A program made the position numbers and the translations under genes. DNA of 64,000 nt from positions 31,934 to 95,933 of the IMG/VR virus record IMGVR_UViG_3300028591_000112; one strand, written 5' to 3'. Origin of the DNA: a virus. Lineage: Duplodnaviria > Heunggongvirae > Uroviricota > Caudoviricetes. Shown piece after piece: positions 3,676 to 64,000 of this stretch (within the stretch, counting starts at the first letter, position 1; every line of letters starts with the position of its first letter). The notes beneath the pieces were generated by a model. That model saw only the letters and a list, made by a program, of their open reading frames with translations. It was not told where the DNA came from and did not search any database.

Positions 3676-3755
3676 TGGTCTAATATTTATAATATACTTA
3701 AGGGAATTTTAAAAATAATTAAATAAGGATAGATAGAGATAAAAGGAGGATTTTT

Positions 3756-6700
3756 ATGAGTAGTGTTAATTATGAAAATCAAATCTTAACTGCTATTGAA
3801 ACACTAGTTGATAGTGCAGTTCAATCAGCTGGTTATGATAAGACGATTAAGGCAACTATCATAAATCAAACTAATGCGGCTATTGGTGAATATAAGGTAA
3901 AATACCAAGATAGTGTATTTTATGCTTATTCAATAGATACTGCAATAGTATATCCTAAAGATACTTTAGTCTATATTCAAGTTCCTGGTAATGACATGAA
4001 ACAAGTCAAAACCATTATTGGGGCAGTAAATAAAGATGATATAGATTATACTGAAGTTCTTGAAACAGAAGATTACTATGATGCGGTTGGCGGCAATAGT
4101 TGTAATAGTGAAACTACATATGGTTTATGCTCATATAATGGTGAAACTAATATAACTTTATACGACAGAGATAATAGTATTAATTTAGTTAATTATGATG
4201 AAGATTTGCTAAAAACTAATCTAAATGAAATGTATAATATTATTTGCGGCGCTTGATTTAAAACTGCTTTAGCAGATGAACAGAAAAAGCAAGGTAATTA
4301 TGGTATTACATTTGATATAGATTTTTATGATGATTTAGATAATACGAAGGTTATAACAAAAACTTATACAATAGATGTTAATAATATTGAAGGAAATCCT
4401 TATAATTTACTATCATTTATTCGTCAAATCAGAATTTTTGAAATTAAAAGCGAAAATTATGTAAATGTTAAAAAAATTGGCTTATTTTGTAAAGGTTTCC
4501 CAAATACAGAAGTAGGTCATGAAAATGATATATTTATTAAAATGCCTATTTTACAAGCGGCAAGAGAAATTCCTGAAGTCGAATTAAATGGTTATTCAGT
4601 TAAAATAGAAACTGATAAGAGTTATTTTAACAGCGAAGATGCGGAGGACGCGCAAACGAGCATTTCCGCAATTGCTAAGATTAAGGGTCATGAAATTGGC
4701 TCAAAGAGATCTGTTCAATATTATTGGTTCAGAGAAAATTCAGATATTTATCCAACTATGACTGGTTATAATACTTATGGTGGTGCAGGTTGGGAATGTT
4801 TAAATGAATATAACATTCTTGATTCTACTACCGGAGAAATAGAGTATATAACAAATAATAAGACTTTAACAATAGCAAAAACAGATTGTGTTGCTACTGA
4901 TAATAAATATAAAGTTGTAGTTATATTTAATGAAAATGGCACAGTAGAAGCGGATATAAATATTAAAAATTATAGTTCAGCATTTACTTTATCTATTGCA
5001 TCTGATGAAGGTACTGAATTTTATTATGGTAATGGAAGTCCTACATTAACATTATTAATTAATGGTGTAGAAAGTCCAGCTAATTATACTTATAAATGAG
5101 CAAAAGAAGATAATAATGGGTTATTCGAAAATCTTGAAGAAACTACTTCAGTTAATTCTACATATAATACATTAGTATCTAATTATAATACTCTTTTAGC
5201 TAGTGTTGCAAATGAGACTGTTTTACCTAATGCGGCAAAAGCACAGTTAGACACATATAAAAATCAAATTGCGGGATATGATGAAATAACAAGAGTAGAA
5301 GGTAAAAAAGTTTATAACATACAAGTTAATGAAATTGATGAATGAGCAACATATAAATGTACTGTATATAATAGTGGCGATATAATAGGTACTGCCGCAA
5401 TTACATTAAATAATTATCCTAAAATTGAAGGAGAATTTACATTAAATATTATAAATGGTACTCAAACATTTAATTATAATAGTGCAGGAATTGCTCCAAC
5501 AAGTCAAACATTACAAAGACCAATGGAATTAAAACCATTAAGTTTTACTATTGTTGACAATAAAGGTAACTTACTTCCTGATAGAATATTAAATTTATGT
5601 AATATACATTGAACTGTTCCAAGTGGCAATAGTTTAATTCAAGCAACAGATAGTACTGATTTAACTCTAGATTATACTCTTGCTGAAAATTATGATATAA
5701 ATTTAATTAATAATAGTAATATTAAATTAGATATTCAATATCAAGAATTGATATTACATGCGGAAACTAATTTTACTTTTATAAAAGATGGACAACCTGG
5801 TACTAATGGTACTAATATTATTTGTAAAATTGTTCCTTATACTGATGATGATTTTGATGGTTATCCAGTATTATATTACAATGGAAATGGAACAACATAT
5901 GGTACTCATTTTAAATTAAACTATACTCCTAATTCAAATTATAGATGGTTTAAATTACAATTATGGGAAAATGGTAGTTTAATTTGGGAAGGCGTAAATA
6001 GTCAAAAAAGCGGAAATGTAATAGTTAAATGGGAAGTTTTAAAAAGCAATTATACTAGTTCAGTTTCTGATTTATCTCATATTAGAATTACTGAAAGTAG
6101 TGGAACATCTGAAACAACTCATAATTATTCATTTTTCTTTAATAATATAGATAGTAATTTAGCTACATATCAATATGCAGCTGATATTATCAGAGGTGAA
6201 GTTACATATAAAGATAAAAAATATTATTGTACTTTACCATTAATAACTGTTAAAACAAATGATTGAACTAATTTTAATTATGAATTAGTTAAAAATAGTG
6301 GATTTAGATATGTGCTTTATACAAGTGATGGAATGTATCCTCAATATGAAAGTGATACTCCATTTACATTAAAAGTTACTGAAAAAATAAATGGATTTAC
6401 AGAAGATATTAGTAATTTAACTACTAATGCACATAAATTAACTTATAATTGAGGAGCATGCGGAAGTTCTTATTATAATGGTAATTGGCATCAAGATATT
6501 GGCTTAATTGAACAAACAATTGCCGCAAATAAAGGTACTTATGTTCCTATTGAAGAATGTGATGGTAGAAATGTTACTCATGCAATTAGAATTGCAATAA
6601 GTCAAAGCAGAAGTCAAATTGCTGAAATTCATATTCCAGTACATTTTTATTTAAATAGATATGGTGTTTCTGCATTAAATGAATGAGATGGAAACCATAT

Positions 6701-9700
6701 TGAAATTAATACTGATAAAGATGTAATATTAGCTCCACAAATAGGGGCTGGCAAAAAAGAAGCTGATAATTCATTTACTGGTATATTTATGGGAGATGTT
6801 TTAGAGGCTGGTAATGAAGAATCTAAAACTGGATTATATGGATATTATAAAGGTGATAAGACTATTGAGTTAAATTCAGAAGATGGTTCAGCTAAGTTTG
6901 GTAAAACTGGAGCTGGTCAAATTATTTTAGACCCAACTGATAATACAGCTAAATTAAAATCTGGTAATTTCTCAATGACATTAAGAGACCCTGCCGCCAA
7001 TGAAAAATATACTAATGGTTTAGTATATTATGGTAGTAGATCTGGTGTTAGTAGAATATTAGTTCCAGGAACTGATTATACTATTGGCAATAATGTTGCT
7101 AATGGAGATAAAATATGGACAAGTGGAAGTGGTTTAGAAATAGATTTAACTGACCCTCATATTATATTCGGTTCTGGAGATTTCTGGGTTGGAAAAGATG
7201 GAGATGTACATGCTAAGGAGTATGCTACAATTGCTAATTTGCAAGGCGGAGCATATACTATTCCACAAAGTTCTGTTGAAAATTTGACAACATTTATTAG
7301 TCAAACTAATAATAGTATAGATGAATTACAAAATCAAATAGATGGAAATATTACTACATGGTTCTATGAATATGAACCAGCTTTAAATAGACCACCGGTA
7401 ACGAGAGATGAAGCTCATCCTGAGGGCACTGGATGGACAACTACAGAATTAAAAAATCAACATTTAGGAGATTTATTTTATAATACTTTAACAGGCTATT
7501 GTTATAGATTTATGATAAGTGAAGGTGTTTATAGTTGGCAACAACTGAGTGATAGCGATATTTCAGAAGCATTAAGAATTGCTCAAGAAGCACAAGATAC
7601 TGCCGATAGTAAACGTAGAGTATTTTATAATACTCCAACTCCTCCATATGATGCAGGAGATTTATGAGTACAAGGTAGTACAGGAGATATTTTAAGATGT
7701 GCTACTCCTAAAACTAGTACTCAAGCTTATGCGGCTGTAGACTGAGTTGCAGCAAGTAAATATACTGATGATACATTAGCACAATCTGCTAATAATAAAA
7801 TAGATAATTTACAAATAGGTGGTAGAAATTTTGTTTTAGAAAGTAATATTCCTAATAAAGATGGGTCTACTGATGCATATCTTATTGGTAAATATAAATT
7901 AAGTAAAAATTTAGTAAATAATAAACAATATACTTGGTCTATTAATATAGAACCAACTACTAATAAAAAAGGTGTAGCAGTATATATTGGCGGAAACACT
8001 CATATATGCGGACGTTGGATAACAGCAAATCCTTTATCTACAGGCACTTATTCTTGTACTTTTATAGCTACTTCAGCTATGGAAAGTTTTGACACTGCTT
8101 GGATATATTGTTCTAATAATGAAGGTCCTCAAGGTACTACAGCTATTACTGGCACATGTAAACTTAATTGAGTTCAAATAGAAGAAGGAAATAGAGCTAG
8201 TGACTGAACTCCTGCCCCAGAAGATATAGAAAATGCGGCAATAGGTACGGTCACTGTTTTATATGCTTTAGGTAATGATACTACAATAGCTCCAACAACT
8301 GGTTGGTCTGAAGTGGCACCATCATGAACTGAAGGTAAATATATGTGGCAAAAAACTGTTATTACTTATGTTAATGGAGATACAGATGAATCTGATCCTA
8401 CTTGTATAGCGGGGGCAACAGGTAAAGCTGGAACTGGAATTACATATTTTGGTACTCGTTCTTGAACTAATGCACAAATAACTGATACATATATAATAGG
8501 TTATTCAGATACATGGGCAAATCAACTAAGCAAAGAAACTAAAGTTGGAGATTTATTATTGTTAGATGTTACTAATTCAACTTATAATACTAAATATGAA
8601 TATATATTAGAAGTTACTATAGGTGGGACATCTAGCCAGGCACCAACTGCAACAATTGTTGCAATTACAAAAGATGGTGATGCTACTGATATTCAAGTTG
8701 GTGGACGTAATGTCTTATGGAATTCAAGATATTTAAATATACCTTATACAATACAATCTCCATATATTTCATATTATAGTTTAACTGCAGCTTCAGTTAT
8801 TGAAAGAGAAGATGGTTTTAATGAAGTTCGTATTACAACGGGAGATAGTTGGAAAGGTATTGCATATAGTTTAAACTCATTAGAATTATCTGTTGGAGAT
8901 ATTTTAACAAATCAATTCTGGTTTAGGTCAAATAATGTTAGTGGAAAACTATCATTATATGCTATGTGTTATGATAGTGGTGGCAATAGGGTTAATGGTG
9001 ATTATTTAGCAGATATTACTTATGAAGGAGATTCAACAACAGGAGATAGTAAATTATTAGAGAACTTTACTAGCACAACAAATAAAAAAATAGTTGTATC
9101 ATTTAAATGAACTCAATTAGCTCAAGATTTAATTGATAATGGTGGAAGGATTACTTTAACTTTCCAAACACATAATTTAACTACTTCTGGTACTGGATAC
9201 TATACTGCGATATGGAAACCTAAAACTGAAATAGGTACTATTGCAACAGATTGGTCTCCTGCAGCAGAGGATACAATGCGTGAGACATTATCTAATGTTA
9301 TTACGACAGGTAGTCCAATATATTGTTATACTACATCAATTAATACCCCACCTTTAACTCCAGATATGAGCGGAGCTCCTACATGGGCGGCCGCACCTCC
9401 GGTAGAAAGTGGTAAGTATTTATGACAAACAACACCTGTTACTGTTGTAAATAGTTTAGGTGTTAGTACAACAACATATACTACGCCAATTTGCTTAACA
9501 CAACCTAAAATTGTTAATATAGTTCAACAATATTGTATGGTTAATGAAAGTAGTACAACTCAACCTGCAGAAAATGATGCTGGTTGAACAGCAGTTATAC
9601 CTGAATGAAAAATAAATAAAAAACTTTGGGTTAGAACTGCAACAATATATGATGATAATAGTTTACGTACTTATTCAAATTATCATATAGATACTACTTG

Positions 9701-10343
9701 GTCAGCTAGTTCAGCATTGCAACAAGATTTAGAGGAAGCAAATGCAAAATTAAACGAAATAACAACTGAAGGAACTGGTGCAATTACAATATCTGGAGCT
9801 AATTTCTATGCTACTGACGCAAGTCAAGAAAATAGATTAGTTATTAATAATCAAGGACTTGGTTTCCAAAAGAAAAATACACAAACAGGTGAATGAGATA
9901 CAGCAACAAGTGTTTGGTCTTTAGATGGAACATTTGATGCTCAAAATATCAATGTTAAAAACTTAAATGCTGAATCTATTGTTAATGGTGATTTAGCAAT
10001 AGGTAAGAATTTTGGTAATAATCCAAATAATGGAGTATTAAAAATATATGATGAACAAGACCATTTAATTATCAAGGGTTCTGGTAGCGATGGTCTAGCA
10101 GTTTCCGCAACTAATGCAAATACTGCGGCAGCAGTTCATACAAAGATTACTCCAACAACAGGTATTGAAGGTTATGATAATGCTCATAATAAAGTATATT
10201 ATCATGATAATGATAAATTTGTTGCAAATAAATTAAATATTACTGAATCTATTACAATAGGTTCTATAAAAATAGTTATTATTAATAGTGCAGAACATAA
10301 AGGTATTGGTTTTGTTACTGCAAGAGATAATAGTAATAGTTAA
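3756..10343 (+). CDS. giant tail-tip/baseplate protein (2195 aa), putative distal tail + tail-associated adhesin
   Basis: Preceded by RBS aaaaggagga. A single frame is open 3756-10343 under code 4; I translated the gaps between the five ORF-track fragments and found only TGA, with TAA at 10341-10343. N/T/S-rich, adhesin-like composition. Position directly after the tape measure gene. Confidence 0.6.
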
Positions 10344-14101: not shown

Positions 14102-14129
14102 ATTTTTTGCATAAAAAGGAGGAATAAAA

Positions 14130-17100
14130 ATGGCACAAGTTAGTTTTTATAAAATGCAAAATAGTGCATTATCTTCTTTCCCTATTAAAGAAGGACAAAT
14201 AATTTATGTTACAGATAGTAAAAGATTATATTTAGATAATGCTGCTAATTCAAGAATAGAAATGACTTCGTATAATTTAACTCAAGATAGTAATAATAAT
14301 CATATATTAATTTTTACAAAGCCAGATGGTACTACAGTTAGTTATACTATGCCAGATACATTATATAATGGCGGAGATCATATAATTATAGATGAAAATA
14401 ACAACATTGATTTAGATGAACAAACAACTGATAGAATTTATGGAGTAGCTACAAAAGAAGGTTCTGGAGAAACAGTTTCATTAGTAGATACAAGAGAAGC
14501 AAAAATGAAAGTTGGTTTAAAAGGTAATACAAGCCAAGAAACAACAACAGGGAAGAATTTGTTAGGTGTAAAAACTAATTTAAAAAAAACCACAACAAAT
14601 GGCATAACTTTTACTCCTGTGTTTAATTCAAGTAATTTATTAGAATATATTGAAGTTAGTGGTACTTGTACTGCTGCAACTACATATACAATATCAAATT
14701 CCGTTTCATTAACTGCAGATAGTTATCTATTAAGTGGATGTCCATCAGGTGGTGGTGCTAATACATATGGTTTAGAATTACGTGGAGGAGCATTCCCAAA
14801 AGATGTAGGCAGTGGTCGTTCATTTACTTTAACAAATGATTTCACATTTTGGGATTGTAGGATAACAATTGAAAAAGGTGCGACTTTATCTGCGTTAAAA
14901 TTTTATCCAATGCTAGTTCAAGGAACAACAGCTACTGACTACGAACCATACACAGGTGGGCAACCTTCACCTAACCCTTCATACCCTCAACCTATACAAG
15001 TAGTAAGTGGAGATAATACAATTGTTAGTACAGGGGTAAACCTATTAACATACCCTTATGTAGATACACCTAATAGTCCAAAGACTACCAATGGACTAAC
15101 TTGGACTGATAATGGAGATGGAACAATAAGTGTAAGTGGAACTGCAACAGGTTATAGTGATTTTGTATTATTCAATACTAACAAAAAATTAATGGTACAA
15201 CCAAATACAACTTATAATTTGAGTGGAATACCAAGTACGGCTTATCTAGTTTTTGATTTAAGTGAGTTCGATAGTGATAATGCTTTAATAGTTGTACACA
15301 ATAATATAAGAAACTCATCTTTTACAACTTCACCTAATGCAAGATGGCTACAAATAATAGCAAAAAGAAGTTCTAATAATCAAGCAACTGATACAATAAT
15401 AAAACCACAACTAGAATTAGGAAGCCAAGCTTCAACATTTGAACCATATACAGGAACATCTTATCAAGTAAATCTAGGTAATATAAAACTATGTAAAATA
15501 GGAGATTATCAAGATAAATTCTTTAAAGCAATAAATGGTAATACAATATACGATAGTTTAGATAGTACAATAAAAAATACTTTAGATTATGGTGAATGGT
15601 ATTTAGAAAAGAATATAGGTAAGGTTGTATTAGATGGTAGTGAAAGTGGATGGACTAAAAACCCTAGCATTACAACTACAAATGGTTATAGTAATAATGC
15701 TTTATTTCCATATAGAGTAAGTAATAGTGGAATATATTGTAATTATTTAAAACAAGTACTATCTTTAAGTGGTAATAAAACAGGCATATATAATGCAACT
15801 AATTGCAATTTCTTATTAGAAGGAACTGATTATGATACCGAAATAAAATTTAAAAATTGGTTAAGCACATATACACCAATAGTTTATTATCAAATGTCAA
15901 CACCAACATATACAAAAATAGAAGGTACACTAGCAAGTCAATTAAATGCAATAGAATATGCTATGTCTTATAACGGACAAACAAACATAACACAAGTAAA
16001 CAATGATAAACCATTTATAATAGATGCAAGTGCAATAGCAGGACTTAGTTTAAATAGTTTAGAAGAAGAAATAAATAGAATGGATTATATTTCTCAATCT
16101 GAAAAAGCTGCACCTAATGGTGTTGCTGAGCTAGATGACCATGGAATTATCTTATCTTCTCAATTACCTAGTTATGTAGATGATGTATTAGAATTTGCTG
16201 ATATGGCGTCTTTTCCAGCTCAGGGAGAAAATGGTAAGATTTATGTAGCGTTAGATACAAATTTAACATACAGATGAAGTGGAAGTGCTTATGTTGAGAT
16301 AAGTAAAAGTTTAGCACTAGGTGAAACTAGCTCAACTGCCTATCGCGGAGATAGAGGCGCTGCCGCATATAAACATGCAGTTACTAATAAAGGAAGTGCT
16401 TTTGCAAGTAATCTTTATAAAATTACTACTAATAGCGAAGGTCATGTAACAGCTGCGACTGCTGCAGTAAAATCAGACATAATTAATTTAGGAATCCCTG
16501 GCACTGCAAGTAACGGAGTAAAAATAAATGAAACAGATATCCAATTAGATGATAATGTTAATAATTTACTTTATGGAAATGAAGAAGTTATTGCAACTGA
16601 TGTTGAAAATGCTAGTTTAAATAATACATTACAAGGAAAATTAAATATAGAATTAAAAGGTAATACATATCAAGAAACAACATCAATAAGTGGTGGAGAT
16701 GAATATGATAGTCCAAGTCCTGACCACCCACAACCTATACAAGTAGTAAGTGGAGATAATGAGGTTGTTGTATGTGGGAAGAATTTATTAGATGTAAATA
16801 ACAATTTAATAAGTAGTATTCAAGGGTTAAGTTTTGTTGCAAATAATAATGGCTCATTTAGTTATAGTGGCACTTTAGAAAGTCATACTTGGGTTAATTT
16901 TATGAATAATGTTGGTACATTCATAAAAGCAGGTGAATATACAATATCAATAAGTAATTCTTTAAATTTTAATCTTGTTTGGTATTTTCAATACGAAGAT
17001 GGAACTAACAATACTTTCAGTATAACATCGGGCGATACATCAAGGACTATAACACTACAAAAAAATGTTGTTAGACATAGAGTAGGCTTTACATTTATGA

Positions 17101-18356
17101 CAATAGGTACAACATATAATGGTACATTAAAAATAATGCTTGAAAAAGGTTCAATTGCAACCTCATACCAACCATATCAAGAGCAAAAATATCCAATAAA
17201 TTTAGGTGTAGAGAATTTATTTGATAAAAATAATGCTAACGTATTAAATGCTTATTTATCAGGTTATAAAATTCTTGGTTATGCAACAAATCAAACTATA
17301 TATATACCAATAATAGGAGGTACAACTTATACTGTAACTAAAAAAGTTGGTGTAACAAATTTATCTCTTGCTTATACAACCACAACACCAACTATTGAGG
17401 GTGAAACTCTTGGAACTATAACAGCTACAAGCAAAACATATACAACTACTTCACCTATTAATGCTACGTTCTTATGTGTATTTGTAAGAAAAGATAGTGA
17501 TAGTGATTATACATTAGAAGAAATATTAGAAGGTTTAGAAATAGTTAAAGGTGATAAAGCACAACAAGTAAGTGATAACCCAATAGAACTATGTAATATA
17601 CCTAATACAAATTATCAAGATAAATTCTTTAAAGCAATAAATGGTAATACAATATACGATAATTTAGATAGTACAATAAAAAATACTTTAGATTATGGTA
17701 AATGGTATTTAGAAAAGAATATAGGTAAGGCTGTGTTAGATGGTAGTGAAAATTGGGTATATCCAACACAAATAGGAAGTAGTACATATTATAGATACGA
17801 AAATCAAAATTTTAGAAATAACGATTGTATGGTACATAGTCAATATTTAAGTGATAATTTTAAATACAATGGTACAACAGGACAAGTAGAACAAAATGTA
17901 ATCACAAATACTTCTGGTGCAAACACTAATAGATTATGGATAACAATAAATACATCTTTAACGAGTGGAACTACTGAAAATGATTTCAAAATTTGGTTAT
18001 CAACACATAATACAAATATCTATTATGTTTTAGAAACACCAACTTATACAAAAATAGAAGGTACACTAGCAAGTCAATTAGAAGATGTATGGAGAGCAAA
18101 TACATACGATAATCAAACTAACGTAAGTCAAGTAAATAATGATTTACCATTTATTTTAGATGTTTCAGCTCCAACATATACTATAAATGGAATGAATAAA
18201 GAATATGCACATAAAGAAGATGCAATTAATAAAGTAACCTCTATTTCAGATTCTTCTACAGATACTCAATATCCTAGTGCTAAATGTGTATATGATTTAG
18301 TTGGTAATGTAGAGACTATTCTAGAAACATTAGATATAGGAAATGGGGTATCATAA
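14130..18356 (+). CDS. tail fibre protein 1 (1408 aa) carrying two tandem receptor-binding cassettes
   Basis: Strong RBS aaaaaggaggaataaaaATG. ORF-track fragments 14130-16277 and 16902-18356 are the same frame, joined via TGA at 16275 with no TAA/TAG between them; TAA at 18354-18356. Internal duplication of a ~450-aa module (PNPSYPQPIQVVSGDN ... LCKIGDYQDKFFKAINGNTIYD ... QVNNDKPFI). Confidence 0.65.
15507..15624 (+). repeat. near-identical ~118-nt repeat inside the fibre genes (second copy 17613-17730)
   Basis: tatcaagataaattctttaaagcaataaatggtaatacaatatacgata...ttagatagtacaataaaaaatactttagattatggt...aatggtatttagaaaagaatataggtaagg occurs twice with about 3 mismatches. Confidence 0.8.
15975..16027 (+). 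repeat. 53-nt exact repeat at the fibre cassette C-termini (second copy 19985-20037)
   Basis: ggacaaacaaacataacacaagtaaacaatgataaaccatttataatagatgc is identical in fibre 1 and fibre 2. A related copy at about 18110-18165 encodes QVNNDLPFILD. Confidence 0.8.
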
Positions 18357-36635: not shown

Positions 36636-37134
36636 TTTCTATAGCCCCCGTCTTCATATTTATAATATTTTGATTGCGGCTACCGCGCCATTTCAATGTT
36701 ATATCTCGTTCTTGAAGTATAAACGGGCCTTCAATCAAATAATCTATAGTTGTTAATATTTCCCCAACTCCAATTAAATTAGTATCTTCTCTTAATTGAG
36801 ATAAAGTATACCCTGTCCATAAACAGATTTTAATATCTGGGAATTTATTTTTTACTACTTTTAATAGTAATTTTATGAACTCTCTTTTATCATAAGTATC
36901 TAAAGGTTCTCCACCTAAAATACTTAAATTTCTTTGTATTCCATTTGCAGAAATTAATTCAATAATATGATTTATTAAATCATTTCAATCTCAAGGTTTT
37001 CCGCCATTTGGATTTCAAGTTTCTGGATTATGACATCCCTGACAATGAAAAGGACAGCCTTGAAGGAATAAACTAACGCTTACTCCTTCCCCATTGACGA
37101 AATCATTACTATTAATACCTGCAACCCTAATCAT
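36628..37134 (-). CDS. nrdG: anaerobic ribonucleotide reductase activating protein (radical SAM)
   Basis: RBS ggagaattgaaATG. CPFHCQGCHNPETW (CxxxCxxC). Three TGA codons, one at a Trp aligning with E. coli NrdG (STW). Lies directly downstream of nrdD. Confidence 0.75.
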
Positions 37135-38095
37135 TTCAATTCTCCAATTTTTTAGAATGTTTATATCTTTGTTCAGTCTCTTGTTGTTTTCCTTTATTAA
37201 ATGCAGTTTTATAATCTCCTGTTAAATATCCTGTAACGCGTCTAAGTTGTTGAATATGCTCGCTTCCGCACATTGGACATTTATCATTAAATTCATCTGT
37301 ATATCCACAATCTAAACAAGTATCATTTGGAACATTAATTGCAAAATAAGGAATATCTTTATCCATAGCATAATTAACTATTTCTTCAAGAGCATCTAAA
37401 TTATGTTTAACGCCGCCCTCTAGTTCTACATATGTAATACATCCAGCATTACTATATCCAGTTAACTGTGCCTCAATATCTATTTTTTCAAATGGACTCA
37501 TTTCTTTCCATACTGGAACGTGAATACTATTAGTGAAATAATCTCTATCACTAACATTAGGAATAATTCCATATTGTTTTTTAAATTTTTTCATTGATGT
37601 ATAACACATATTCTCAGCAGGAGTATAATAAACACCAATGTTTAAATGTAAATCTTTTTTAAATTGTGCGCATCTATCTTTAAATAGTTGCTCAATTCTT
37701 TTAGCTAACTCCATACCTTCTTCTGTTGTATGGTCTTTACCAATTAATATTTGTAATGTTTCTGCTAAACCTATTTGGCCTATAACAAGAGTTCCATGTT
37801 TCATAGCACTTTCAACTGTTTTGCCATCATAGCCAAGCATAATATTGTTTTCATACATAAACTTAGCAGATTCAGGTGATTGATTAATAATCCAATTATA
37901 TCTTTCTACTAACATATCTTTTGCTTCATATATTTTTTTATCAAGCAATTCCATAAAAGCTTCAATGTCTTTATTAGCTTCCATAGCTAAAGTTGGCATT
38001 ACAATAGTAACAGGACAAATGTTTCCGCGGCCATCCTTAGTTTGAGGATTTACACCTGGATCAGCGTTTATATCACTTCCGTTATAGGTTCTACA
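37127..38095 (-). CDS. nrdD: anaerobic ribonucleoside-triphosphate reductase, exon 2 (C-terminal part including the glycyl-radical motif)
   Basis: Starts TGTAGAACC (CRTYNGS...GRGNICPVTIVMPTL). Zn ribbon CLDCG...CPMCG and RVTGYL glycyl radical site. Ends KLENWND then TAG at 37127. Confidence 0.75.
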
Positions 38096-39188
38096 CGTTT
38101 TTTCCTTATGTTACCATAAGCACTGACTATATCTTCTGCCTTGCGGCAGCCTTCTGCTTCGAGCTGGTGCTTATCTCCAGCCCTACTCCCTTACATTCAT
38201 CAGGGATAGTCGATACACTTTATTTTAAAATTTCAATAATATAACCTTCAATTTGAGGTCTTTCACCTTTTGCTATCTTAGCAATTATTTGTCTACTAGG
38301 TAATTCAGGCATCTCTCTTTCTACTTCTCTATAACTTTTAAATATTTTAATTTCATTAGTAAGAAGTATTGTAATTTTAATTTGAGTTCCTTTTCTTCTA
38401 ATATTTGTAGATACTGTATATTCATTAGTATAATCATCATTTTCATAAGCAATTAATCATTCATCTCTAAATAATTTTTTAATTTCATGATTACATCTTC
38501 TTGAAATGAACTGATGATTATTTTCATTAAAGAATTGTTGCATTTCAGATTGACTTCCAAAATGATATTCTTCATTAGTATTTATATTTTTACATTTAAC
38601 TCCAGTAGCATTTGGATTGTTAGCTCCTAATTTTGAAGCTCTTATTTTTTCACTTATTGTAGCAAGTTCTTCTTTAGTCTTACTCTGATAAGTATTTCCG
38701 CCACTTTTATTTGTAGCATCTGTTTCATTGTAACCATTCTCAATACTGTTATAATATCTAATCCAATACTGTTCCTTTTGAGTTAATTCTTCTTGAGTTT
38801 CTGCAGTATCTATTATTTCTGCTTTAAAATTATCTACTCCATAATATCTTAATGCTCTTGCAAAATGAGTATCAATAATATTATTTAAAGCATCGTTTTT
38901 ATGTCTATTAAATCTTTCTTCTAAAGTTCTTATTGTTTGTCCAATATAAACTTTATTATTTTTTAAATTTGTTATTTTATAAACTATCATAATAAAATCT
39001 CCTTTTCTTTTTCACCAATATATGAAAAATTGTACGGTACATTTTATTAATTTTGTTCATTTTTTTATTGAAATTTTAAAATCTTAGCACGGTCTCATCC
39101 TATCTTTAGGACCTAACCGTTAGCGGCGTTTCCGCCACACCCATTAAGCATGGTTCAAAAGGTTTTAGATGAGCTGTAGTTTACACTT
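38096..39188 (-). other. group I intron (IA-like) interrupting nrdD at STMG|CRT
   Basis: 5' exon ends in U (ATGGGT). Intron ends in G (aaaaaacg) before TGTAGA. Splicing restores the conserved NrdD TMGCR motif. Contains a T4 td-like core GUAUCGACUAUCCC and carries a GIY-YIG ORF. Confidence 0.7.
38220..38990 (-). CDS. GIY-YIG homing endonuclease within the nrdD intron (256 aa)
   Basis: RBS aaaaggagattttattATG. VYKITNLKNNKVYIGQT...YWIRYYNSIENGYN (GIY-YIG). Continues through TGA at 38457-38459 into a C-terminal putative DNA-binding extension; TAA at 38220. Confidence 0.75.
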
Positions 39189-40421
39189 ACCCATCGTTGA
39201 AACATATGTTTTAGGGTCGTTAACATCATATCCAGCATTAACTGACCAATCTACATTAACATAATTAGGATATAATCTTTGTGCTGTTGATTTAAGAGCT
39301 AATTTAAATAAATCATAATTAGGGTCTCCAGGTTTGCGGTTAACTCCTTTCATGCATTGAAATATACCACATGGGAATATTGGAGTTTTTCTAACTTTAC
39401 CCACACCTTCAATAGAACCTTCTAATAATGCTTTTGTAACCATTCTACCTTCAGGTAAAGTACAAGTACCATAATTAATTGAAGTAAATGGTAATTGATT
39501 GCCACTTCTACTTTGTAAAGTGTTTAAGTTATGATACATACCTTGAACAGCTTGCATTAATTCTTTTTCTGTTTTATTAAGTGCATACTTATAAACTTTT
39601 GGGAATTGTTTATAAAAGTCTGCGTCGATAGGTAATTCATCTGATTCTTGTCTTAAATCACTTTCTTCGATATATTCCATACCTTCATTAAAATGTTTTT
39701 TAAATGATAATCTAACATATGGAACCATAGTCCAGTCTAAATGACTTGCACTAACTCCGCCAAATTGTTGTAGGGATTGTAACTGAAATAATACTGCTAC
39801 TAATTGAAATGCTGTATTTATAGAACGGGCTGGTCTTACATCTGTTTGTCTAGTATTAAAACCTTCTGCTAATAATTTATCAAAAGGTACTGTTAAACAA
39901 TTGTGCATACCAACTGCATATGCATCTAAATCATGAATATAGATTTCATTATTTAAATGATTTTCTCTTGCCATAGGTGATACAATATAATTAAGAGCAT
40001 AATCTTTCATAAGTTCGCTTCTTGCTTCACCCATGCGGCCGCCGAATGAATACTCATCAACATTAGCATTTTGATTTTGAACATCAGAAGCTTCAATTTT
40101 CTCTTTAATATTTTGCATCAATTTACTATTAGCATTTCTAATTTTTGTTCTTTCTTCTCTATAAAGAATATAATTTTTAGCGACATCTTTTCTTTTTGTT
40201 GACATTAAACCTTTTTCAACAAGGTCTTGAATTTCTTCAATTCCAGGTGTTTCATCAACATCTAAAAAATATCCTTCAATATAACTAGCTATATTTTCAG
40301 CCTTTTCTCTTGCATAATCGGTAATTTCACCATCTACGTCTTGAAATGCGGCAAGAATCGCATTTTGAATCTTAGTTGCATCAAATGGAACTATACGTCC
40401 ATCTCTTTTAATAACATTCAT
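39189..40421 (-). CDS. nrdD: anaerobic ribonucleoside-triphosphate reductase, exon 1 (ATP-cone and N-terminal core)
   Basis: RBS gaggagg. MNVIKRDGRIVPFDATKIQNAI (ATP cone). Intact 411 codons with no TGA. Ends YVSTMG at the intron. Confidence 0.75.
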
Positions 40422-40470: not shown

Positions 40471-41061
40471 TTATATATGAAAAGTTTTTTTAATAGATGA
40501 ATCTAATCTGCTTAAGCAGCTATGCTCTTTTAAAAATAAATAAAAATTTTCTAAATTTACATTATTTCCATTATAGTAAGTATAAAAATCAAAATCTAAA
40601 TCTACATTAAAGTCTTTTGAATCACTTAAAAAACGTCTGCATATCTCTTCACAATTTGGTTTATCTTCTCGATTTAAAGAGCGCATTAAACGAGTTTTAT
40701 CTTCGCAAGCAATGAGAATAGGAGTAATATCTAAATTATTATCTTGTAATAAACACTCTAATGCATGGATATTAAATACTCCTATATTAATATTATTTTC
40801 TTTTAAATCATCTCTTGCTGTACCATAAAATCAATTATTAAAACTTGTTGCTTCTAACATTGTTCCATCTAAAACTTTTAGTCCAAACTCTTCTTCTGTT
40901 AGAAAATGATAATTTACATCTTCTTTTTCATATTCTCTTTTTGGTCTTGTTGTTGTAGTAATAATTTTATTAAAACCAGTTTTATTAACTATATAATTTA
41001 ATAAAGTATCTTTACCACATCCGCTAGGGCCAAAAAGGGCAATAACTTTTATTTTATTCAT
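40471..41061 (-). CDS. gmk: guanylate kinase-like nucleoside monophosphate kinase
   Basis: P-loop GPSGCGKDTL, TTTRPKREYEKEDVNYHFLTEEEF, FYGT. Two ORF-track fragments joined through TGA. Start overlaps the dnaE end. Confidence 0.65.
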
Positions 41062-43688
41062 TATTACCGCCCTTTCTATCATGTCTTAATTGCATATTTC
41101 CCTTTTCATCTATTTGTTCAATTAAATATATTTGATGTGTTTGTGTCTTTGTATAGGTCTTAGCTACAAAAGTATCATCTCTTCTAAATCCAGTTATCAT
41201 TAATTTTGTTCCTCTTGTGAACCAGCCTTTTTCTATAACATGTTTTGTTCCATCTGCTTGAAGTTCACTTATTTGTCTATTATACATAGCAAAATAATCT
41301 TTAGTAAATTTAATTGGAACAATACCATCTGGAGTTAATAAAGTGACACTATTTTTTGTATCATTTTTATTAATAACAGTTCCTACTATTTTAAATGTTT
41401 TAAAAATAGGAATTTCTTTACCATTTCTTTTAAACATTTGATCGACTTGCGGATTAGGGGATAAATTAAAGAAATCTGTTAGTCCATATTTTAAATTATT
41501 TACATGAGATAATTCATGTTCATGATAATAGAAACATAAAGCTTCCATCTCCCATGCAGATAAATTGCCTTGTGCATATTTATCTCATGCTTCTTTAAAT
41601 AATAAAATATTAAACTTTTTAAGCATTTCCGCTTGATGTTCTTGTATATATGTGCGGGCTTCCGCCATTACATCTTGATAAATTTTATCCCATCTTGTTT
41701 GCAATATACAAGTTAATCCATTAATTACTTCTAATTGGTCTATATCAAAATTTGCATTATAAAATGTTTCACATACATTATTAAATACATAATATTTTCC
41801 AACTTTTTGATTTGCTTTTAAATATCTATTAAATTTAAAAGTTTTCTTTTGGAACTCTAATTCTTCAGGAATTAAATCATGTTCTAATAATCCATTAAAA
41901 TTTTGTAATGTTAATCTTTTCTTTGCATCGCAAGTTTTACTTAAATAATATGTCATTGTCCAAAAACGTGGTTCTACATTTGCGGCAGCAGCATATTGTT
42001 TATCTACTTTATCAAAAGCTCCTGCTTTAATCAAACTAATCATTGCACTTTTATTTAATGGACATCTATTAATAAAATCTGCTATTCCAATATATGGACG
42101 TCCGTTTTTAATTTGTTCTATAATAGGCCCACCAATATTACTTAATGCCTTCATACCAAATAAAATTTCATTATTATCTACATCTGGCTCAAAACTATAA
42201 TCAGATTTATTAATATCAACTAAACTAACTTTAATTCCTTTACTTATAATATCACTTAATGCTTTTGCAATTTTACTATAATCTGTTGTTTTTTCTTTCT
42301 TTTCTACAATATATCCATCTTCATCTTCTTCAAAATCGCTATCTTCTTCTAAACTTCCGCTATTAACTATTAAACATGCGGTATTCCAATATATTGGGTT
42401 CCATCTTGTTGCTACATACATAGTTTGAAAACCTATAAAACTATATGCTAATGCGTGAATAATTGAGAATGAATATCCCATTTGAGGACCAACTCCGCAA
42501 GTTCAAACATAATGGCCTAAACAAGGACTTGCCGCTTGATCTAATACCTGTTGTCTTAATGCTGGAATTTTACTCATTTGTTTCTTTCCAACTATTTTAC
42601 GTGCGGCATTTGCATCTTTTAATGAGAAATTACATATATGTTCATCCATTAACATTCTCATTAATTGCTCTTGACTTGGCGGAACTCCGTGAGAGCTCTT
42701 AAAATATGGCTCTAATGTTTTTTGTTCTTCTTTTGTTAAACCATATTCATCCATTTCTTTATACCATAAATTAATATTATTTTTAAATCTAATATATTTA
42801 TCCATTGGAGATTCTTGACCTTTTTCTGCTGTCATTAATCTCATTAATCCATTTGCATCAGCCATTTCCATTATATTAGATGGCTTAATTTTCTTAGCGG
42901 CTTGACTTCCTACGTCACTATCAAATTGAAAAATATTTAATACATTATTTTCTTGAAGAACTTTCCAATATTTATCTTCTTCAATAGGAAGAACATTTGG
43001 ATGAAAATATTTATTATAAACTTCTCTTAAAGTTAAATCATTTTCTATTTCTCCATAATCTTGTAACATTCTAATAGCTTCCGCTAATTTATCTTGAACT
43101 TCAGTTACTAAAAAGTCATATTTAGTCATTCCGCATGCTTCACACATATGTAAGTCATATGCAGTGATTACCTCTCCTTTTGGAGTTCTCATAAACGAAC
43201 CAAATTCATACGGATCTTCATCAAATAATATAACTCCTGAGGCATGACTACTTCTTTTATTTACTAGTCCTTCTATTCCCATCATTATATCTAATAAACC
43301 AGGGAATTGATTAACTTCATTAATAAATGTTTTATTAGGTTTTCTATCTTTGTCTTCATTTCCATATACAACATCATTTAAAGACCATAAAAATCCACGT
43401 TCACTAGGAATTAATGAACTTAAATATTGAGCTGTATCAACATCTATTCCATCAGGAAAATCTTCACTACGATATCCGCGGCAAGCGGTTAATATAGTTG
43501 AACGAGTTCCTTCTGTACCAAAAGTTGCTATTAAAGTACAACCTAAATTTTTTCTACTTATTTCATTTATATCACTATTAAAATTTTGTCCTCTTTCTTT
43601 TTTAATTTCATTTAAAATTTTAGGACGCTTACTAGGACATAAATCTAAATCTATATCTCCTAATTCTACACGCTCTTTATTTAAATCA
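41054..43688 (-). CDS. dnaE: DNA polymerase III alpha (DnaE-type), exon 2
   Basis: Starts (F)DLNKERVELGDIDLDLC (the PDIDIDF motif). Contains HASGVIL and a C-terminal OB fold. ORF-track fragments 42503-43285, 41585-42481 and 41054-41548 are in one frame joined by TGA. Confidence 0.7.
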
Positions 43689-44707
43689 CGTTATCCACCA
43701 TTTCTGATGGCGTAGACTATATCTTATTCTTTAAATATTTTCTATAAAATAACCACAGTAATATCCATTTCCTGCCCTAGCAGCTTTTAATCCAGCTCTT
43801 GCGCTTTCTACTTTAGTAGTTTTACATATTTTATTTTCTACAAATCATTCAGCACAATCTTTTACGGAATCAAATTCTTTATGAAAATCATTTTTACTTA
43901 TCATAATTCTTTGTCCAGCTGCTTGTCTAAAACTAAATCTTGGAATATTATTTTGATTTAATATATCATCTACTGTTGAATGATTAATTCCAAAATTTAA
44001 TGCTGTTTTTCTTGCACTTCTAGTTTTATAATAATCTTCAATAATTTCTTTATTTGGAAGCATTTTATGGTATTGTTGACCTCCAAATGTTTCATTATAT
44101 CCTTTTACAAAACTATTATAATAATCTATCCAATAAATTTCCGCCTTATCTAATTGTTCATAAGTCTCTATATTATCTTGAAGAACTTCAAAAGTAAAAT
44201 TTTCAATTCCATATTTTCTCATAGCTTTATATAAAGTTTTGTTAATACAATTTGGATGATTGATATTTATATTTCTTTTATGTTCTTTTCATCTTTCTTC
44301 AGCAGTTTTTATTGTTTGACCAATATAACATTTATTATTTATTTTATTTGTTATTTTATAAATTAACATATTAATCTCTCCTTTTCTATTATTATATGAA
44401 AAGTAGATTAATATTTTTCTACCTTTTTGACCAAAGTGGTAGAAAATATTTAAAGATTTTCGCACTTCGAGTAGTAACTCATCTTCTACTCTACTCCTTT
44501 CGGATAGTCGTTACACCTTGCGGCGACTGCCGCCTTGGCACTGGATTACCTTCAACTTTACTTGCTAAGGTTTCCCTGTTAGCATAAGAATTAATTAACC
44601 ATTTCCTGTTAAAACTGTTCGTTTCTTACACACCCTTGAGTAACAAGGTTCACGAAATTTTTTATACTATACATTACTGTATAGGGCACCTATTTCTTAA
44701 AAGTTCT
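43689..44707 (-). other. group I intron interrupting dnaE at KWSLPFWRF|DLNKERV
   Basis: 5' exon ends CGCTT (U). Intron ends ...gataacg (G). The joined exons give a continuous alignment to the DnaE consensus KYNLLFERFLNPERV. Core GUAACGACUAUCCG (+ strand 44491-44514) resembles the T4 td intron P7 region. Confidence 0.6.
43724..44369 (-). CDS. GIY-YIG homing endonuclease within the dnaE intron (about 215 aa)
   Basis: RBS aaaaggagagattaatATG. LIYKITNKINNKCYIGQT...YWIDYYNSFVKGYN. Two in-frame TGA codons (44222, 43845). TAA at 43724. Confidence 0.7.
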
Positions 44708-60942: not shown

Positions 60943-61656
60943 ATTAAAATCCTCCTTTTCCAATAATTTATCTATTGTTATATTATTAAAATTCTTATAA
61001 GAAATTTCTATCAATTTTTTATTATTATTTATACACCATTGTTTTTTTATTTTATCTCTTTTTATTTGATTTGTCAATTTTTCTTTTGTATTTCAGCCTA
61101 TATTTAATGTTTCATAGTGTTGACTACCTTGATATTCTATTAAAATATTGTATTCAGGAAGAAAAAAATCAAACCTTAACTTAGCATTAGTTTCAGGATT
61201 AATGCAATCTTCAAAAGTTTTTTCTTTTTCAAAAATGATATTATTTTCTTTTAGAAGATTAGATATTCTTTCTTCGCCTAAAGATTTAATGCATCCACAA
61301 GAATGTGTATGTCCTCTTCTTAAATCGATACCATTTACAATGATTTGATTACCGCATTTACATTGACATAATCAAAAAACATCTTTATTAGCATTATTCT
61401 TCTTAGCTTTTTCTATAACTGTCAGCTTCCCATATACATTTCCTATTTCTTCTTTTATAAGAGATGCTCTATTTTTATCATCAGGGCATCGTGTAATTTT
61501 TTGTAAAGAATCAGATCTTACAGAATGAATCTTATCACAATTATCACAAGAGCATAACCAAAATGCTCTTTTTTGTTGATTTGTTCTGTCTATATCTAAT
61601 TTTATTACTGTCAAAGGTCCAAATTTTTGACCTGTTAAATCTTTTCTATTCGGCAT
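60943..61656 (-). CDS. free-standing endonuclease: tandem Cys-rich DNA-binding repeats + Vsr/PD-(D/E)xK-like C-terminal domain (about 237 aa)
   Basis: Two repeats (GQKFGPLTVI...FWLCSCDNC and VYGKLTVI...VFWLCQCKCG...HSCGC); the second Trp is encoded by TGA, giving an internal control for TGA = Trp. C-terminal FDFFLPEYNILIEYQGSQHY resembles the Vsr/DUF559 nuclease core. Inserted between gyrB and gyrA. Confidence 0.5.
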
Positions 61657-62218
61657 TATAAGAAGCCTCTTTACTATGAAGTTTGATGAAATCTTTACGA
61701 CTTTGAATAGCAGTCCCCATTAAATCATTAAATAATTTATCTGCGGCCGCCGCATCATCAACAGTTATTTGTTTAATAATTCTATTATCGGGATCAGTTA
61801 GTGTTTCTTCAGTTTCGTCTACGGACATTTCACCTAAACCCTTCATTCTATTAACAGTTATTTTTTTATCTCCTATTGATTTTTTAAATTCTTCTAATTC
61901 TTCATCATTTTTAATATATTTATATTCTTTACCTATTGTTACTTTATATAATGGTGGAACTCCTGCATATATATATCCATCTTCAATTAATTGAGGACAG
62001 AAATTCCATATAAAAGTATAGAACAAATTTTTAATATGCGCTCCATCAACATCAGCATCAGATTCAATAATAATTTTGCCATATCTTAAACTATCTTTAT
62101 CATAAGTAACTTGCATAGTTTTAGTATCAATATATAATCCAAAAGCATCTATCATAGTCATAATTTCCGCATTTTTTTGTATTTTATCTAAACTTGCTTT
62201 TTGTGTATTAAGTATTTT
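61646..62218 (-). CDS. gyrB: type IIA topoisomerase subunit B (GyrB-like), exon 2
   Basis: Starts KILNTQKASLDKI (completing RG|KILN). Contains GKIIIESDADVDGAHI and YAGVPPLYK. TAG at 61646. Confidence 0.7.
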   Translation of the reverse strand, partial: KILNTQKASLDKIQKNAEIMTMIDAFGLYIDTKTMQVTYDKDSLRYGKIIIESDADVDGAHIKNLFYTFIWNFCPQLIEDGYIYAGVPPLYKVTIGKEYKYIKNDEELEEFKKSIGDKKITVNRMKGLGEMSVDETEETLTDPDNRIIKQITVDDAAAADKLFNDLMGTAIQSRKDFIKLHSKEASYNAE

Positions 62219-63356
62219 CGTTTTCCCTTATATTTCTATAAGAACTGACTATCTCTTACTCTCTGAGTTTGTCATCACTCTTCTTCGAGCACTCCATTTC
62301 GAACTGCGTATCAATAGCAGCCCTACTCCCAGTCTAACCCGGGATAGTCGATACATGAGTTAATCTACATTTTTATAAGTTTCTCTTTTTATAATTGCTG
62401 CAATAGAACTTTCAGATAAATTATATTTTTCTCCTAATTCTCTATAACTAACAACTCCTTTTTTATAAGAATTTCTTATTTCTTTTACTTGGACATTAGT
62501 AAGTTTTGCATTAGTATGTCTTACCTGTTCTTTGTTTGGAATATTTCCAACAGTGACATAAGTTTGACCTAAAACTATTCTTTTAAAAGTTTGTTGATTT
62601 GAATATAAATCTTTAAAATCTTGATAAATTTCTTTTATTGGTTCTCCATCAATATATCTTTGTCTAATATCCCAAACTTGTTGATTTGTTAGTTTTGCTC
62701 GAGGATGATTTTCACTCATTAAAGATTTATTTTGTTCCCTTGTTTTTTGTCTTTTTAATTCGGTTTCTTCAGAATAAATATTTGGACTCCAGTATTGTCC
62801 ACCTTCAGTTGAATTATATCCATTTTTAAAAGTATCAAATTCTTTTATATATTTAATTTCTAAATCATCTAATTCTTTTTCTTCACATAGTTTTAATATA
62901 ATTACTTCAAAATTATCAATTCCATATTTTCTAAGAGCTTGATAAAACTTAGTATTATAATTACAATTATTTTCATTCTTATAATCTACTAAATGATGAC
63001 TTTGAAATCTTTTTCTAATATTTTTGCTTTGTCCAATATATTTTTTATTGTTTATTAAATTTACTACCATATAAATTCCACTATTAGCTGGTAGATTTTC
63101 TATATTTTTCATATTTATCTCTCCTTTGTCAATAATATATGAAAAATAGTTTTAAGTATTTATATATTTTTGTCCGTTTTTAGTATTTTAGATTAACATT
63201 TTCACACGGGATTACCTTCGCCTAAACATATTTTGACATATATGTGTAACGGTCAGGCTTCCCCGTTAGCATACATTTCTGTACACCCCACTGATAAGTG
63301 GTTAGAAGTGTAGAGGCAAATATTATTTCGGTATAGCCTTACGCTATCCTAAGTCT
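62219..63356 (-). other. group I intron interrupting gyrB at PVRG|KILN (TOPRIM)
   Basis: 5' exon ends AGAGGT (U). Intron ends ...gaaaacg (G). Core GUAUCGACUAUCCC and CAGCCCTACTCCC are identical to the nrdD intron. Carries a GIY-YIG ORF. Confidence 0.65.
62360..63112 (-). CDS. GIY-YIG homing endonuclease within the gyrB intron (250 aa)
   Basis: RBS acaaaggagagataaatATG. GIYMVVNLINNKKYIGQS...KYIKEFDTFKNGYN. TAA stop, no TGA. Confidence 0.75.
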   Translation of the reverse strand: MKNIENLPANSGIYMVVNLINNKKYIGQSKNIRKRFQSHHLVDYKNENNCNYNTKFYQALRKYGIDNFEVIILKLCEEKELDDLEIKYIKEFDTFKNGYNSTEGGQYWSPNIYSEETELKRQKTREQNKSLMSENHPRAKLTNQQVWDIRQRYIDGEPIKEIYQDFKDLYSNQQTFKRIVLGQTYVTVGNIPNKEQVRHTNAKLTNVQVKEIRNSYKKGVVSYRELGEKYNLSESSIAAIIKRETYKNVD

Positions 63357-64000
63357 ACCTCTCACTGGCATTACCGCTTGGAACTCATTATCTCTTGCTG
63401 ATTTTAAGTTTCCGCTTGCGGAATCTCCCTCTGTGATATATATTTCACATTTGTTTCTATCTTTTGAATAACAATCAGCAAGTTTACTATCAAATTTTAA
63501 TGCTTTTTCTTTTTTCTTATTAGTTTCTCTTACTCTCTCACGAGCGTTTTTAGCTGCCTCTCTAGCTTTACGAGCGGCTGCCGCCTTATCAAAAATAGTT
63601 TTAATTTCTTTTTCATTATTAACTAACCAATATTGTAAATTAGTAGCAATAATAGTAGAGAAATTGCTCATATCTAATTTAGTAACAGTTGATTTTACTT
63701 GTGCATCATATGCAACATTAGGGGCAGTCATATTAAATACTATATACATACCTTCTTGTATATCATCTCCTGTTAAATTTTCTTCTTTATCTTTTAACCA
63801 TTTTTTATCTTTAAAGAATTTATTAAATTCTCTTGTAATTATAGTTTTAACTTGCGTTATATGAGGGCCTTTCTCTGTAAGACCTGTATTTACATAAGGA
63901 ATTAATGTTAATGAATAATTAGATGTATATGTTAATACCATGTCTAATTTTTCTTTTCCTTCTGCATACTTCATGTCAAATCTATTTGATATAATTTCTT
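63357..64000 (-). CDS. gyrB: type IIA topoisomerase subunit B (GyrB-like), exon 1 (3' part; N-terminus beyond the window)
   Basis: Transducer domain LTGDDIQEGMYIVFNMTAPNVAYDAQVKS and TOPRIM start EIYITEGDSASGNLKSARDNEFQAVMPVRG. The reading frame continues upstream past 64000. Confidence 0.7.

Follow-up and report, generated by a model that had tools for sequence, protein, structure and literature searches.

Group I introns that carry GIY-YIG endonuclease genes are classic inhabitants of phage genes for nucleotide metabolism, and the T4 introns in nrdD (sunY), with I-TevII, and in td, with I-TevI, are the described systems closest to the one analyzed here. Among phage ribonucleotide reductase (RNR) genes, nrdD is the one most often split according to Dwivedi et al. 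(2013, PMC3653736), who also report split phage RNR genes without splicing. In the Jug phages, jumbo phages of the gut, nrdD is broken up by group I introns together with endonuclease genes, and the study of these phages (PMC12880540) describes metatranscriptomic support for splicing. We analyzed a 64,000-nucleotide (nt) stretch of a tailed phage genome, positions 31,934 to 95,933 of the IMG/VR record IMGVR_UViG_3300028591_000112 (the window, to which all coordinates refer), in which nrdD, its insert and an endonuclease gene all lie on the minus strand. We conclude with high confidence that 39188..38096 is a mobile phage group I intron of the IA2 type, inserted in nrdD between the codons for Gly411 and Cys412. 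The gene and its insert are arranged as follows.

39189..40421, minus strand: nrdD exon 1, 411 codons encoding the ATP-cone and the N-terminal part of NrdD; 3' end TCA ACG ATG GGT, final T at 39189
38096..39188, minus strand: IA2-like group I intron of 1093 nt; first base A39188, terminal base G38096
37136..38095, minus strand: nrdD exon 2, 319 codons and stop; 5' start TGT AGA ACC TAT AAC GGA AGT (CRTYNGS)

Under the standard genetic code, the open reading frame (ORF) map of this region contains a 418-amino-acid (aa) ORF (40421..39165) that encodes the N-terminal two-thirds of NrdD plus eight unrelated residues, a GIY-YIG ORF of 177 aa (38990..38457) and a 287-aa ORF (37999..37136) that encodes the C-terminal portion of NrdD. 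Joining 40421..39189 to 38095..37136 in frame yields a single 730-aa NrdD, and the expected spliced junction (39189/38095) reads ACGATGGGT followed directly by TGTAGAACC. The joined protein matches the Pfam NRDD profile in a single stretch (positions 2-562 of 562, E = 2e-154), as well as Pfam ATP-cone and Gly_radical, and aligns without gaps across the junction to solved NrdD structures (STMGCRT in the window, ATMGCRT in 8p23 and APMGCRS in 9d3x). In the alignment with T4 NrdD, Cys412 corresponds to Cys290 and Gly700 (in RVTGY) to Gly580, which we take from the T4 NrdD literature to be the thiyl-radical cysteine and the glycyl-radical site, respectively. The insertion bond within TMG/CR, with the GGU of Gly411 on one side and the UGU of Cys412 on the other, is therefore placed exactly 5' of the catalytic cysteine codon. 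With an ATP-cone, an NRDD domain, the thiyl-radical cysteine and a C-terminal glycyl-radical motif, the product is predicted to be a class III RNR, and both exons are open across all 730 codons despite the 28.6% G+C content of the genome, with every catalytic motif retained. The original prediction, made from the window's letters and ORF list, had placed two NrdD ORFs (39165..40421 and 37136..37999) around a GIY-YIG ORF, ended exon 1 in STMG with a terminal U and the intron in G, begun exon 2 with CRTYNGS and proposed that the TMGCR motif is restored; each of these points is confirmed here, with the boundaries at 39189, 38096 and 38095. As a separate observation, the nrdD frame terminates at a TGA (37138..37136) with a TAG three codons on (37138..37127, minus strand), so NrdD would gain a 4-residue C-terminal extension if TGA were always read as Trp.

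To describe the ribozyme, the intron was folded without constraints, with GAAA in place of the ORF loop. The minimum free energy fold of this ORF-deleted intron yields P1, P3, P4, P5, P6/P6a, P7.1, P7.2, P8 and P9; P7 (GACUAU/AUAGUC, forming a pseudoknot with P3), P10 and the terminal G were added by inspection. The resulting helix order, P1-P3-P4-P5-P4'-P6-P6a-P6'-P7-P7.1-P7.2-P3'-P8-P7'-P9, is that of a canonical group I core with its P3/P7 pseudoknot, and the extra P7.1 and P7.2 hairpins between the 5' strand of P7 and the 3' strand of P3 mark it as subgroup IA (IA2-like). The elements, from 5' to 3', are listed below.

39195..39189, minus strand: P1 5' strand GAUGGGU, the last 7 nt of exon 1, pairing with GCUCAUC
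39168..39179, minus strand: internal guide region, CUACA (39179..39175, the P10 strand) followed by GCUCAUC (39174..39168, the P1 3' strand)
38095..38091 with 39179..39175, minus strand: P10, exon 2 UGUAG with CUACA, a guide that adjoins the P1 3' strand on its 5' side
39156..39162, minus strand: P3 5' strand CCUUUUG, pairing with CAGAAGG at 38156..38150
39153..39141, minus strand: extra hairpin 1, CCAU-GCUUA-AUGG, between the P3 5' strand and J3/4-P4
39138..39123, minus strand: extra hairpin 2, GUGGCG-GAAA-CGCCGC, with a GNRA loop, also between the P3 5' strand and J3/4-P4
39120..39115 with 39094..39089, minus strand: P4, ACGGUU with GACCGU, enclosing P5
39112..39097, minus strand: P5, GUCCUA-AAGA-UAGGAU, inside P4
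39088..39087, minus strand: P6 5' strand GC
39082..39065, minus strand: P6a 5' strand AUUUUAAAAUUUCAAUAA
38239..38222, minus strand: P6a 3' strand UUAUUGAAAUUUUAAAAU, overlapping the final endonuclease codons
38218..38217, minus strand: P6 3' strand GU
38211..38206, minus strand: P7 5' strand GACUAU, at the start of the catalytic 3' domain (38125..38211)
38205..38188, minus strand: P7.1
38183..38161, minus strand: P7.2
38156..38150, minus strand: P3 3' strand CAGAAGG
38149..38136, minus strand: P8, CUGCC-GCAA-GGCAG
38135..38131, minus strand: J8/7, AAGAU
38130..38125, minus strand: P7 3' strand AUAGUC
38120..38105, minus strand: P9 hairpin, CUUAUG-GUAA-CAUAAG, followed by the 3' tail and the terminal G at 38096

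At the 5' splice site U39189 stands opposite G39174, forming a U·G wobble at the end of P1. P6a is a perfect helix of 18 base pairs (bp) whose terminal loop holds the endonuclease ORF, and the two extra hairpins (39123..39153) precede the UAA that leads into P4. Alternative P3 pairings that would put these two hairpins upstream of P3, as a canonical P2/P2.1, were considered and rejected, as none was complementary and CCUUUUG/CAGAAGG covaries; an intein or a group II intron was likewise discarded, the insert being out of frame with stops and its fold that of group I, not group II.

The fold is strongly supported by comparison across homologues. The alignment comprised 18 distinct mini-introns, with 7 bp of P6a kept and the loop replaced by NNNN, and the pairs were taken from the window structure. 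Standard pairs occupy 96.5% of the 1362 pair cells, against 37-45% when the partners were slid by 1-3 columns (a paired fraction that is somewhat inflated, the structure deriving from one member, whereas the compensatory counts are unaffected); 32 of the 78 pairs change on both sides, and no shuffle out of 500 reached any of the five measures. Compensation is found in P3 (first pair C-G in 9 and U-A in 9, fourth pair UA in 15 and CG in 3), P4/P5, P6, P6a, P7.2 (three pairs, both sides), P8 and P9, and it extends to the exon-guide pairing of P1, in which pair 6/35 is GC in 11, CG in 6 and AU in 1. All 7 counted pairs of P6a change on both sides, and its sequence differs in nearly every homologue. 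The U·G at the 5' splice site is present in 18/18, the terminal G (38096) is kept in all aligned copies, and P10 (CUACA/UGUAG) is paired in 97.7% of cells. The two extra hairpins are conserved in position and show compensatory variants such as CCUC/GAGG, CCAC/GUGG and GUUCGC/GCGAGC.

Relationship to known introns was established with a covariance model built from the 3' domain of the nrdD-site intron family. This family model finds all three T4 introns, with 79.1 bits for nrdD (E = 5e-18), 48.9 bits for td (E = 2.5e-10) and 22.4 bits for nrdB (E = 0.0015), and it scores 68.5 bits on L099, a metagenomic intron that is itself positive with the general Rfam model RF00028. A megablast search against GenBank phages further revealed a 32-nt exact match between 38212..38181 and the T4 nrdD (sunY) intron, spanning the 5' strand of P7, P7.1 and the start of P7.2; among the 50,697 GenBank phage records, this match and short matches to endonuclease motifs were the only ones to the intron. 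At the level of sequence and structure, the intron is thereby established as a homologue of group I introns whose self-splicing has been demonstrated by experiment.

The distribution of the element was assessed by scanning IMG/VR with a 31-mer from the core followed by a base other than T, which returned 25 loci. The same intron occupies the identical nrdD site in 23 of them and in 4 contigs of metagenome-assembled genomes (GTDB genome set), giving 27 other contigs in all; because the junction restores a full-length NrdD and the element recurs at the same site in these contigs, its identification as an intron is not a matter of chance. At 81 related loci the site is empty and reads straight through ACN ATG GGN/TGY MGN ACN. 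The NrdD proteins of the 23 intron-bearing IMG/VR loci are 58-81% identical to that of the window, and the closest relatives (84-91% protein identity) lack the intron. ORF-less introns occur naturally at the same site in L093 (263 nt) and L102 (256 nt). Presence and absence at one fixed bond amount to a patchy distribution, as expected of a homing intron, and this pattern is the indirect evidence for site-specific cleavage of intron-less alleles by an endonuclease whose activity and cleavage position are inferred. The exon sequences are biased too: the Gly codon is GGT at all 21 of the 5' splice sites located by regular expression, and at those of L085 and L107 by inspection, compared with 33/81 empty alleles (Fisher test, p = 2e-7), and exon 2 begins with TGTAG in 22/24 intron-bearing alleles compared with 33/81 empty ones (p = 6e-6). 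This bias fits the constraints of P1 and P10, or co-conversion during homing. Other inserts of ~0.3-1.5 kb were also seen at various conserved positions of related phage nrdD genes, after aa 700 (the glycyl-radical Gly) in L068, after aa 570 in L064, near aa 309 in L093 and L106, and near aa 170 in L093, a gene that is interrupted three or four times.

Several observations weigh against this assignment and must be set beside the evidence above. Splicing itself is inferred from the sequence. RF00028 gave no match across the window at its gathering score, nor on the 1.4-kb region at E <= 10, and on the ORF-less homologue L093 it reached 22.4 bits (gathering score 50; E = 0.0012) in a mostly misaligned hit. 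Two hairpins separate P3 from P4, a place at which a canonical group I intron has just a 3-nt J3/4; P7 and P7.1 are invariant in the comparison set and so contribute no covariation evidence; and the standard code (table 11) cuts the endonuclease ORF to 177 aa. The invariance is uninformative because both helices belonged to the 31-mer used to fetch the homologues. The Rfam result is read as a limit of the model because the family model finds all three T4 introns, and we do not count it against an intron: the core is interrupted by the ORF, homologues that lack the ORF fail as well, and the T4 sunY intron, as a positive control, passes with 105.3 bits. The two extra hairpins between P3 and P4 are the likely cause of the failure. 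The search with RF00028 had been put forward as a check in the original prediction, and we judge its outcome a false negative; the element that it described, a 1093-nt group I intron whose peripheral loop houses a GIY-YIG gene, is upheld by the continuity of the protein across the junction, the covarying fold, the T4 homology and the presence or absence of the element at a single bond, and a complete P1-P10 fold, covarying over 18 homologues, was obtained where failure to find a P1-P9 fold had been named as grounds for abandoning the idea.

The loop of P6a contains the second component of the element.

38220..38990, minus strand: gene for the GIY-YIG homing endonuclease, within the terminal loop of P6a; start codon ATG at 38990, TGA in frame at 38459..38457, stop codon TAA at 38222..38220

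The gene is preceded by a Shine-Dalgarno-like AAAGGAG, and its product matches Pfam PF01541 (GIY-YIG) with 44.1 bits (cut-off 22.6) over residues 2-88 and the I-TevI catalytic domain (1mk0/1ln0) with E = 1e-7 over residues 3-93. In the alignment to 1mk0, the motifs VYKI, VYIGQ, ERFNRH, KEQYWI and NGYN are in register, and with them the conserved Tyr, Tyr, Arg, Glu and Asn. No close homologue was found among GenBank phages, near-full-length matches (88-89% of the query) having at most 32% identity. The length of the protein depends on the genetic code: it is 256 aa, as the original prediction had it, if TGA encodes Trp, and 177 aa (38990..38457) under the standard code, so that the predicted length stands only with the recoding.

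A real intron with a freshly inactivated endonuclease, in which the TGA at 38459..38457 is a true stop and the 177-aa product has lost its C-terminal DNA-binding part and with it the capacity for homing, is the alternative that deserves most attention. It agrees with the 177-aa ORF of table 11, with a search of the window that found no transfer RNA (tRNA) gene, and hence no suppressor tRNA, and with an nrdD that contains no in-frame TGA and whose own frame ends at one. Stop-codon recoding is already described in gut phages and is relevant here chiefly to how the ORF is read. The genome as a whole argues for it in this case. The TGA aligns with a conserved Trp of six homologous intron endonucleases, and the frame beyond it stays open for 78 more codons, to the P6a strand. 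With TAA and TAG as the sole stops, long ORFs emerge at 3723..10343 (2206 codons), 14115..18356 (1413) and 3..3647 (1214) on the plus strand and at 41054..43690 (878) on the minus strand, regions that table 11 breaks into fragments. In the 878-codon ORF both TGAs fall on Trp, in 55/55 and 64/68 homologous high-scoring segment pairs, and another TGA of the window lies inside a tail-fibre-like motif, TYR(TGA)SGSAYVEIS. Relatives carry TGA at Trp positions within nrdD itself (L005, L009, L013, L028 and L097), while others have many TAGs at Gln positions; the sister endonucleases of L104 and L105 contain only TGA, at two conserved Trp positions, and those of L088, L090, L101 and L106 only TAG, mostly at Gln positions. 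The window genome thus appears, from these alignments, to read TGA as Trp, and because the whole-genome analysis supports this, we take the endonuclease to be the full 256-aa protein. A nonsense mutation was our initial reading of the TGA and is now disfavored after the genetic-code analysis; truncation keeps a minor share of the probability and is, in our view, unlikely. Two further observations concern the code: TGA is commoner among the plus-strand genes of 1..27.5 kb, where the tail-fibre-like motif lies, than among the replication genes of the minus strand, and the nrdD of L090 contains 14 in-frame TAGs. One mobile intron lineage is thus found across at least three genetic codes.

Two other explanations would do away with a functional intron altogether. 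In one, nrdD is permanently split and its halves are translated separately and assemble, in the manner of NrdA and mobE of Aeromonas phage Aeh1, the insert being a free-standing endonuclease cassette. Two separate ORFs do exist, and unspliced split RNR genes are among the phage cases reported in PMC3653736, but the first downstream ATG lies 32 codons past the junction, and a product begun there would be deprived of CRTYNGS..GRGNICPVTIV and of the catalytic Cys. The non-coding flanks of the supposed cassette, moreover, adopt a group I fold that is conserved, covaries and pairs with the ends of the two exons, and versions of 256-263 nt devoid of any ORF occur naturally at the same site (L093, L102); a permanent split is extremely improbable. 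The other explanation holds that the insert is a decayed, non-splicing relic and that nrdD is a pseudogene in this phage. The missing Rfam match would accord with decay, but the exons have remained open for 730 codons in a genome of 28.6% G+C with all catalytic motifs kept, the core nucleotides of P7, J8/7 and P7.1 are identical to those of the active T4 nrdD intron, and every helix is intact in the window copy, which makes decay very unlikely. A mobile, splicing-competent group I intron remains the reading that we adopt.

By analogy with the T4 introns, such an intron would be expected to act as follows. In the folded pre-mRNA, exon 1 GAUGGGU would pair with the guide GCUCAUC to form P1, presenting the U·G at the cleavage site; free guanosine, presumably bound in P7, would attack after U39189; the guide-adjacent CUACA would hold exon 2 UGUAG in P10; and the terminal G38096 would then enter the G site, so that the exons are ligated into an mRNA for the intact 730-aa NrdD. 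The I-TevI-type endonuclease would, for its part, cut intron-less nrdD alleles of co-infecting phages, and the intron would be copied in by homing.

The window contains two more group-I-like introns, both on the minus strand. One, at ~44690..43689 (the 5' splice site is approximate), interrupts a DnaE-like polymerase gene, whose exon 1 ends in GITQLDPIK(TGA)SLPFWR and whose exon 2 starts with DLNKERVELGDIDLDL. It has an R element, AACGACTATCCGAAAGGAGTAG, at ~44509 and an S element, AAGATATAGTC, at 43725..43715, and a GIY-YIG gene with in-frame TGAs (~44368..43731) in the loop of a 17-bp P8; the nrdD-intron family model scores 29 bits on it, at 44412..44515. The other, at ~63330..62218, lies between the ORFs 63974..63339 and 62227..61646. 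Its 3' domain (62355..62218) is found by the family model with 60.2 bits (E = 3e-13) and is missed by Rfam, and a 250-aa ORF (63112..62360) ends just 5' of the R element, in the P6-loop position.

The assignment has practical consequences. In annotation, two 'NrdD fragments' and a 'hypothetical' spacer should become one spliced nrdD with an intron-encoded endonuclease, and screens based on RF00028 under-count phage introns. The locus also adds to the cases in which a mobile intron targets the best conserved codons of an essential enzyme, in this instance that of the catalytic cysteine; a different intron lies 4 nt away in a related phage (TR-TP1), and other nrdD insertions lie at the glycyl-radical Gly, near aa 309 and at further places in the gene. 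The link to recoding offers a small natural experiment on how the proteins of mobile elements adjust to the genetic code used by their carrier (TGA at Trp, TAG at Gln). We tentatively suggest, with a little less than even confidence, that, among phage IA2 introns, these form a structurally distinct lineage, which would combine a sunY-type core, an ORF in P6a and a conserved module of two hairpins (one GNRA) between P3 and J3/4, be systematically missed by RF00028, and have spread among gut and rumen phages with three genetic codes. Within such a lineage the endonuclease ORF would carry TGA at Trp or TAG at Gln according to the code of the host, the ribozyme being portable between codes but the endonuclease not.

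Compared with described systems, the intron is closest to that of T4 nrdD (sunY). The two share a host gene, an IA-type ribozyme that has P7.1/P7.2 but lacks a P2 between P1 and P3, the same guide GCUCAU, identical P7 (CGACUAU/AUAGUC), P7.1 and J8/7 (AAGAU), and an endonuclease of the GIY-YIG family. They differ in site, the T4 intron mapping to window residue ~296 (T4 Glu179/Tyr180) and not to the bond between Gly411 and Cys412, so that identity of the two sites is ruled out; in the place of the ORF, which is downstream of P9 in T4 and in the P6a loop in the window; and in structure, the window lineage having two extra hairpins between P3 and P4 and different sequences in P7.2, P8 and P9. With the T4 td intron, in turn, the window intron has in common an ORF in the loop of the P6 region, an endonuclease catalytic domain of the I-TevI kind (1mk0, E = 1e-7) and two motifs, CCGUGCUAA at the P4/P6 junction and CGACUAUCCC; td differs in its host gene (thymidylate synthase) and in having a P2 and a P7.1 with a short loop. 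The td-like core of the original prediction is present as GTATCGACTATCCC at 38216..38203, yet the core sequence common to td and the window intron is limited to CGACTATCCC and the GGGAGTAGGG stretch, and td has been replaced by sunY as the nearest relative (32-nt identity; 79.1 vs 48.9 bits with the family model).

Among GenBank phages, the closest nrdD is that of the Thomasclavelia phages TR-TP1/TP2 (PQ571309/PQ571310), with 64% identity over exon 1, and this gene too is broken within the codons of TMGCR; the insert there carries an ORF and has R and S elements that resemble those of group I introns. The TR-TP1 insertion lies 4 nt upstream of the window site, after the AT of the Met codon, and has an HNH, not a GIY-YIG, endonuclease; its ribozyme gave no match to the family model at E <= 1 and is assigned to group I by motifs only. 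GenBank annotates the TR-TP1 pieces (L002, PQ571309, 4701..5626) as separate NrdD fragments. The window's insertion site and ribozyme lineage are not described in the accessible portions of PMC3653736 and PMC12880540, and a literature search of limited coverage, which leaves room for precedent, found nothing specific on this site or on inserts between P3 and P4. What is specific to the present intron is therefore its site at the equivalent of Cys290, the combination of a sunY-type core with a td-type ORF placement, the hairpin module between P3 and P4, and the failure of RF00028; otherwise, at a site not seen in T4, it is an ordinary representative of a known type of mobile element.

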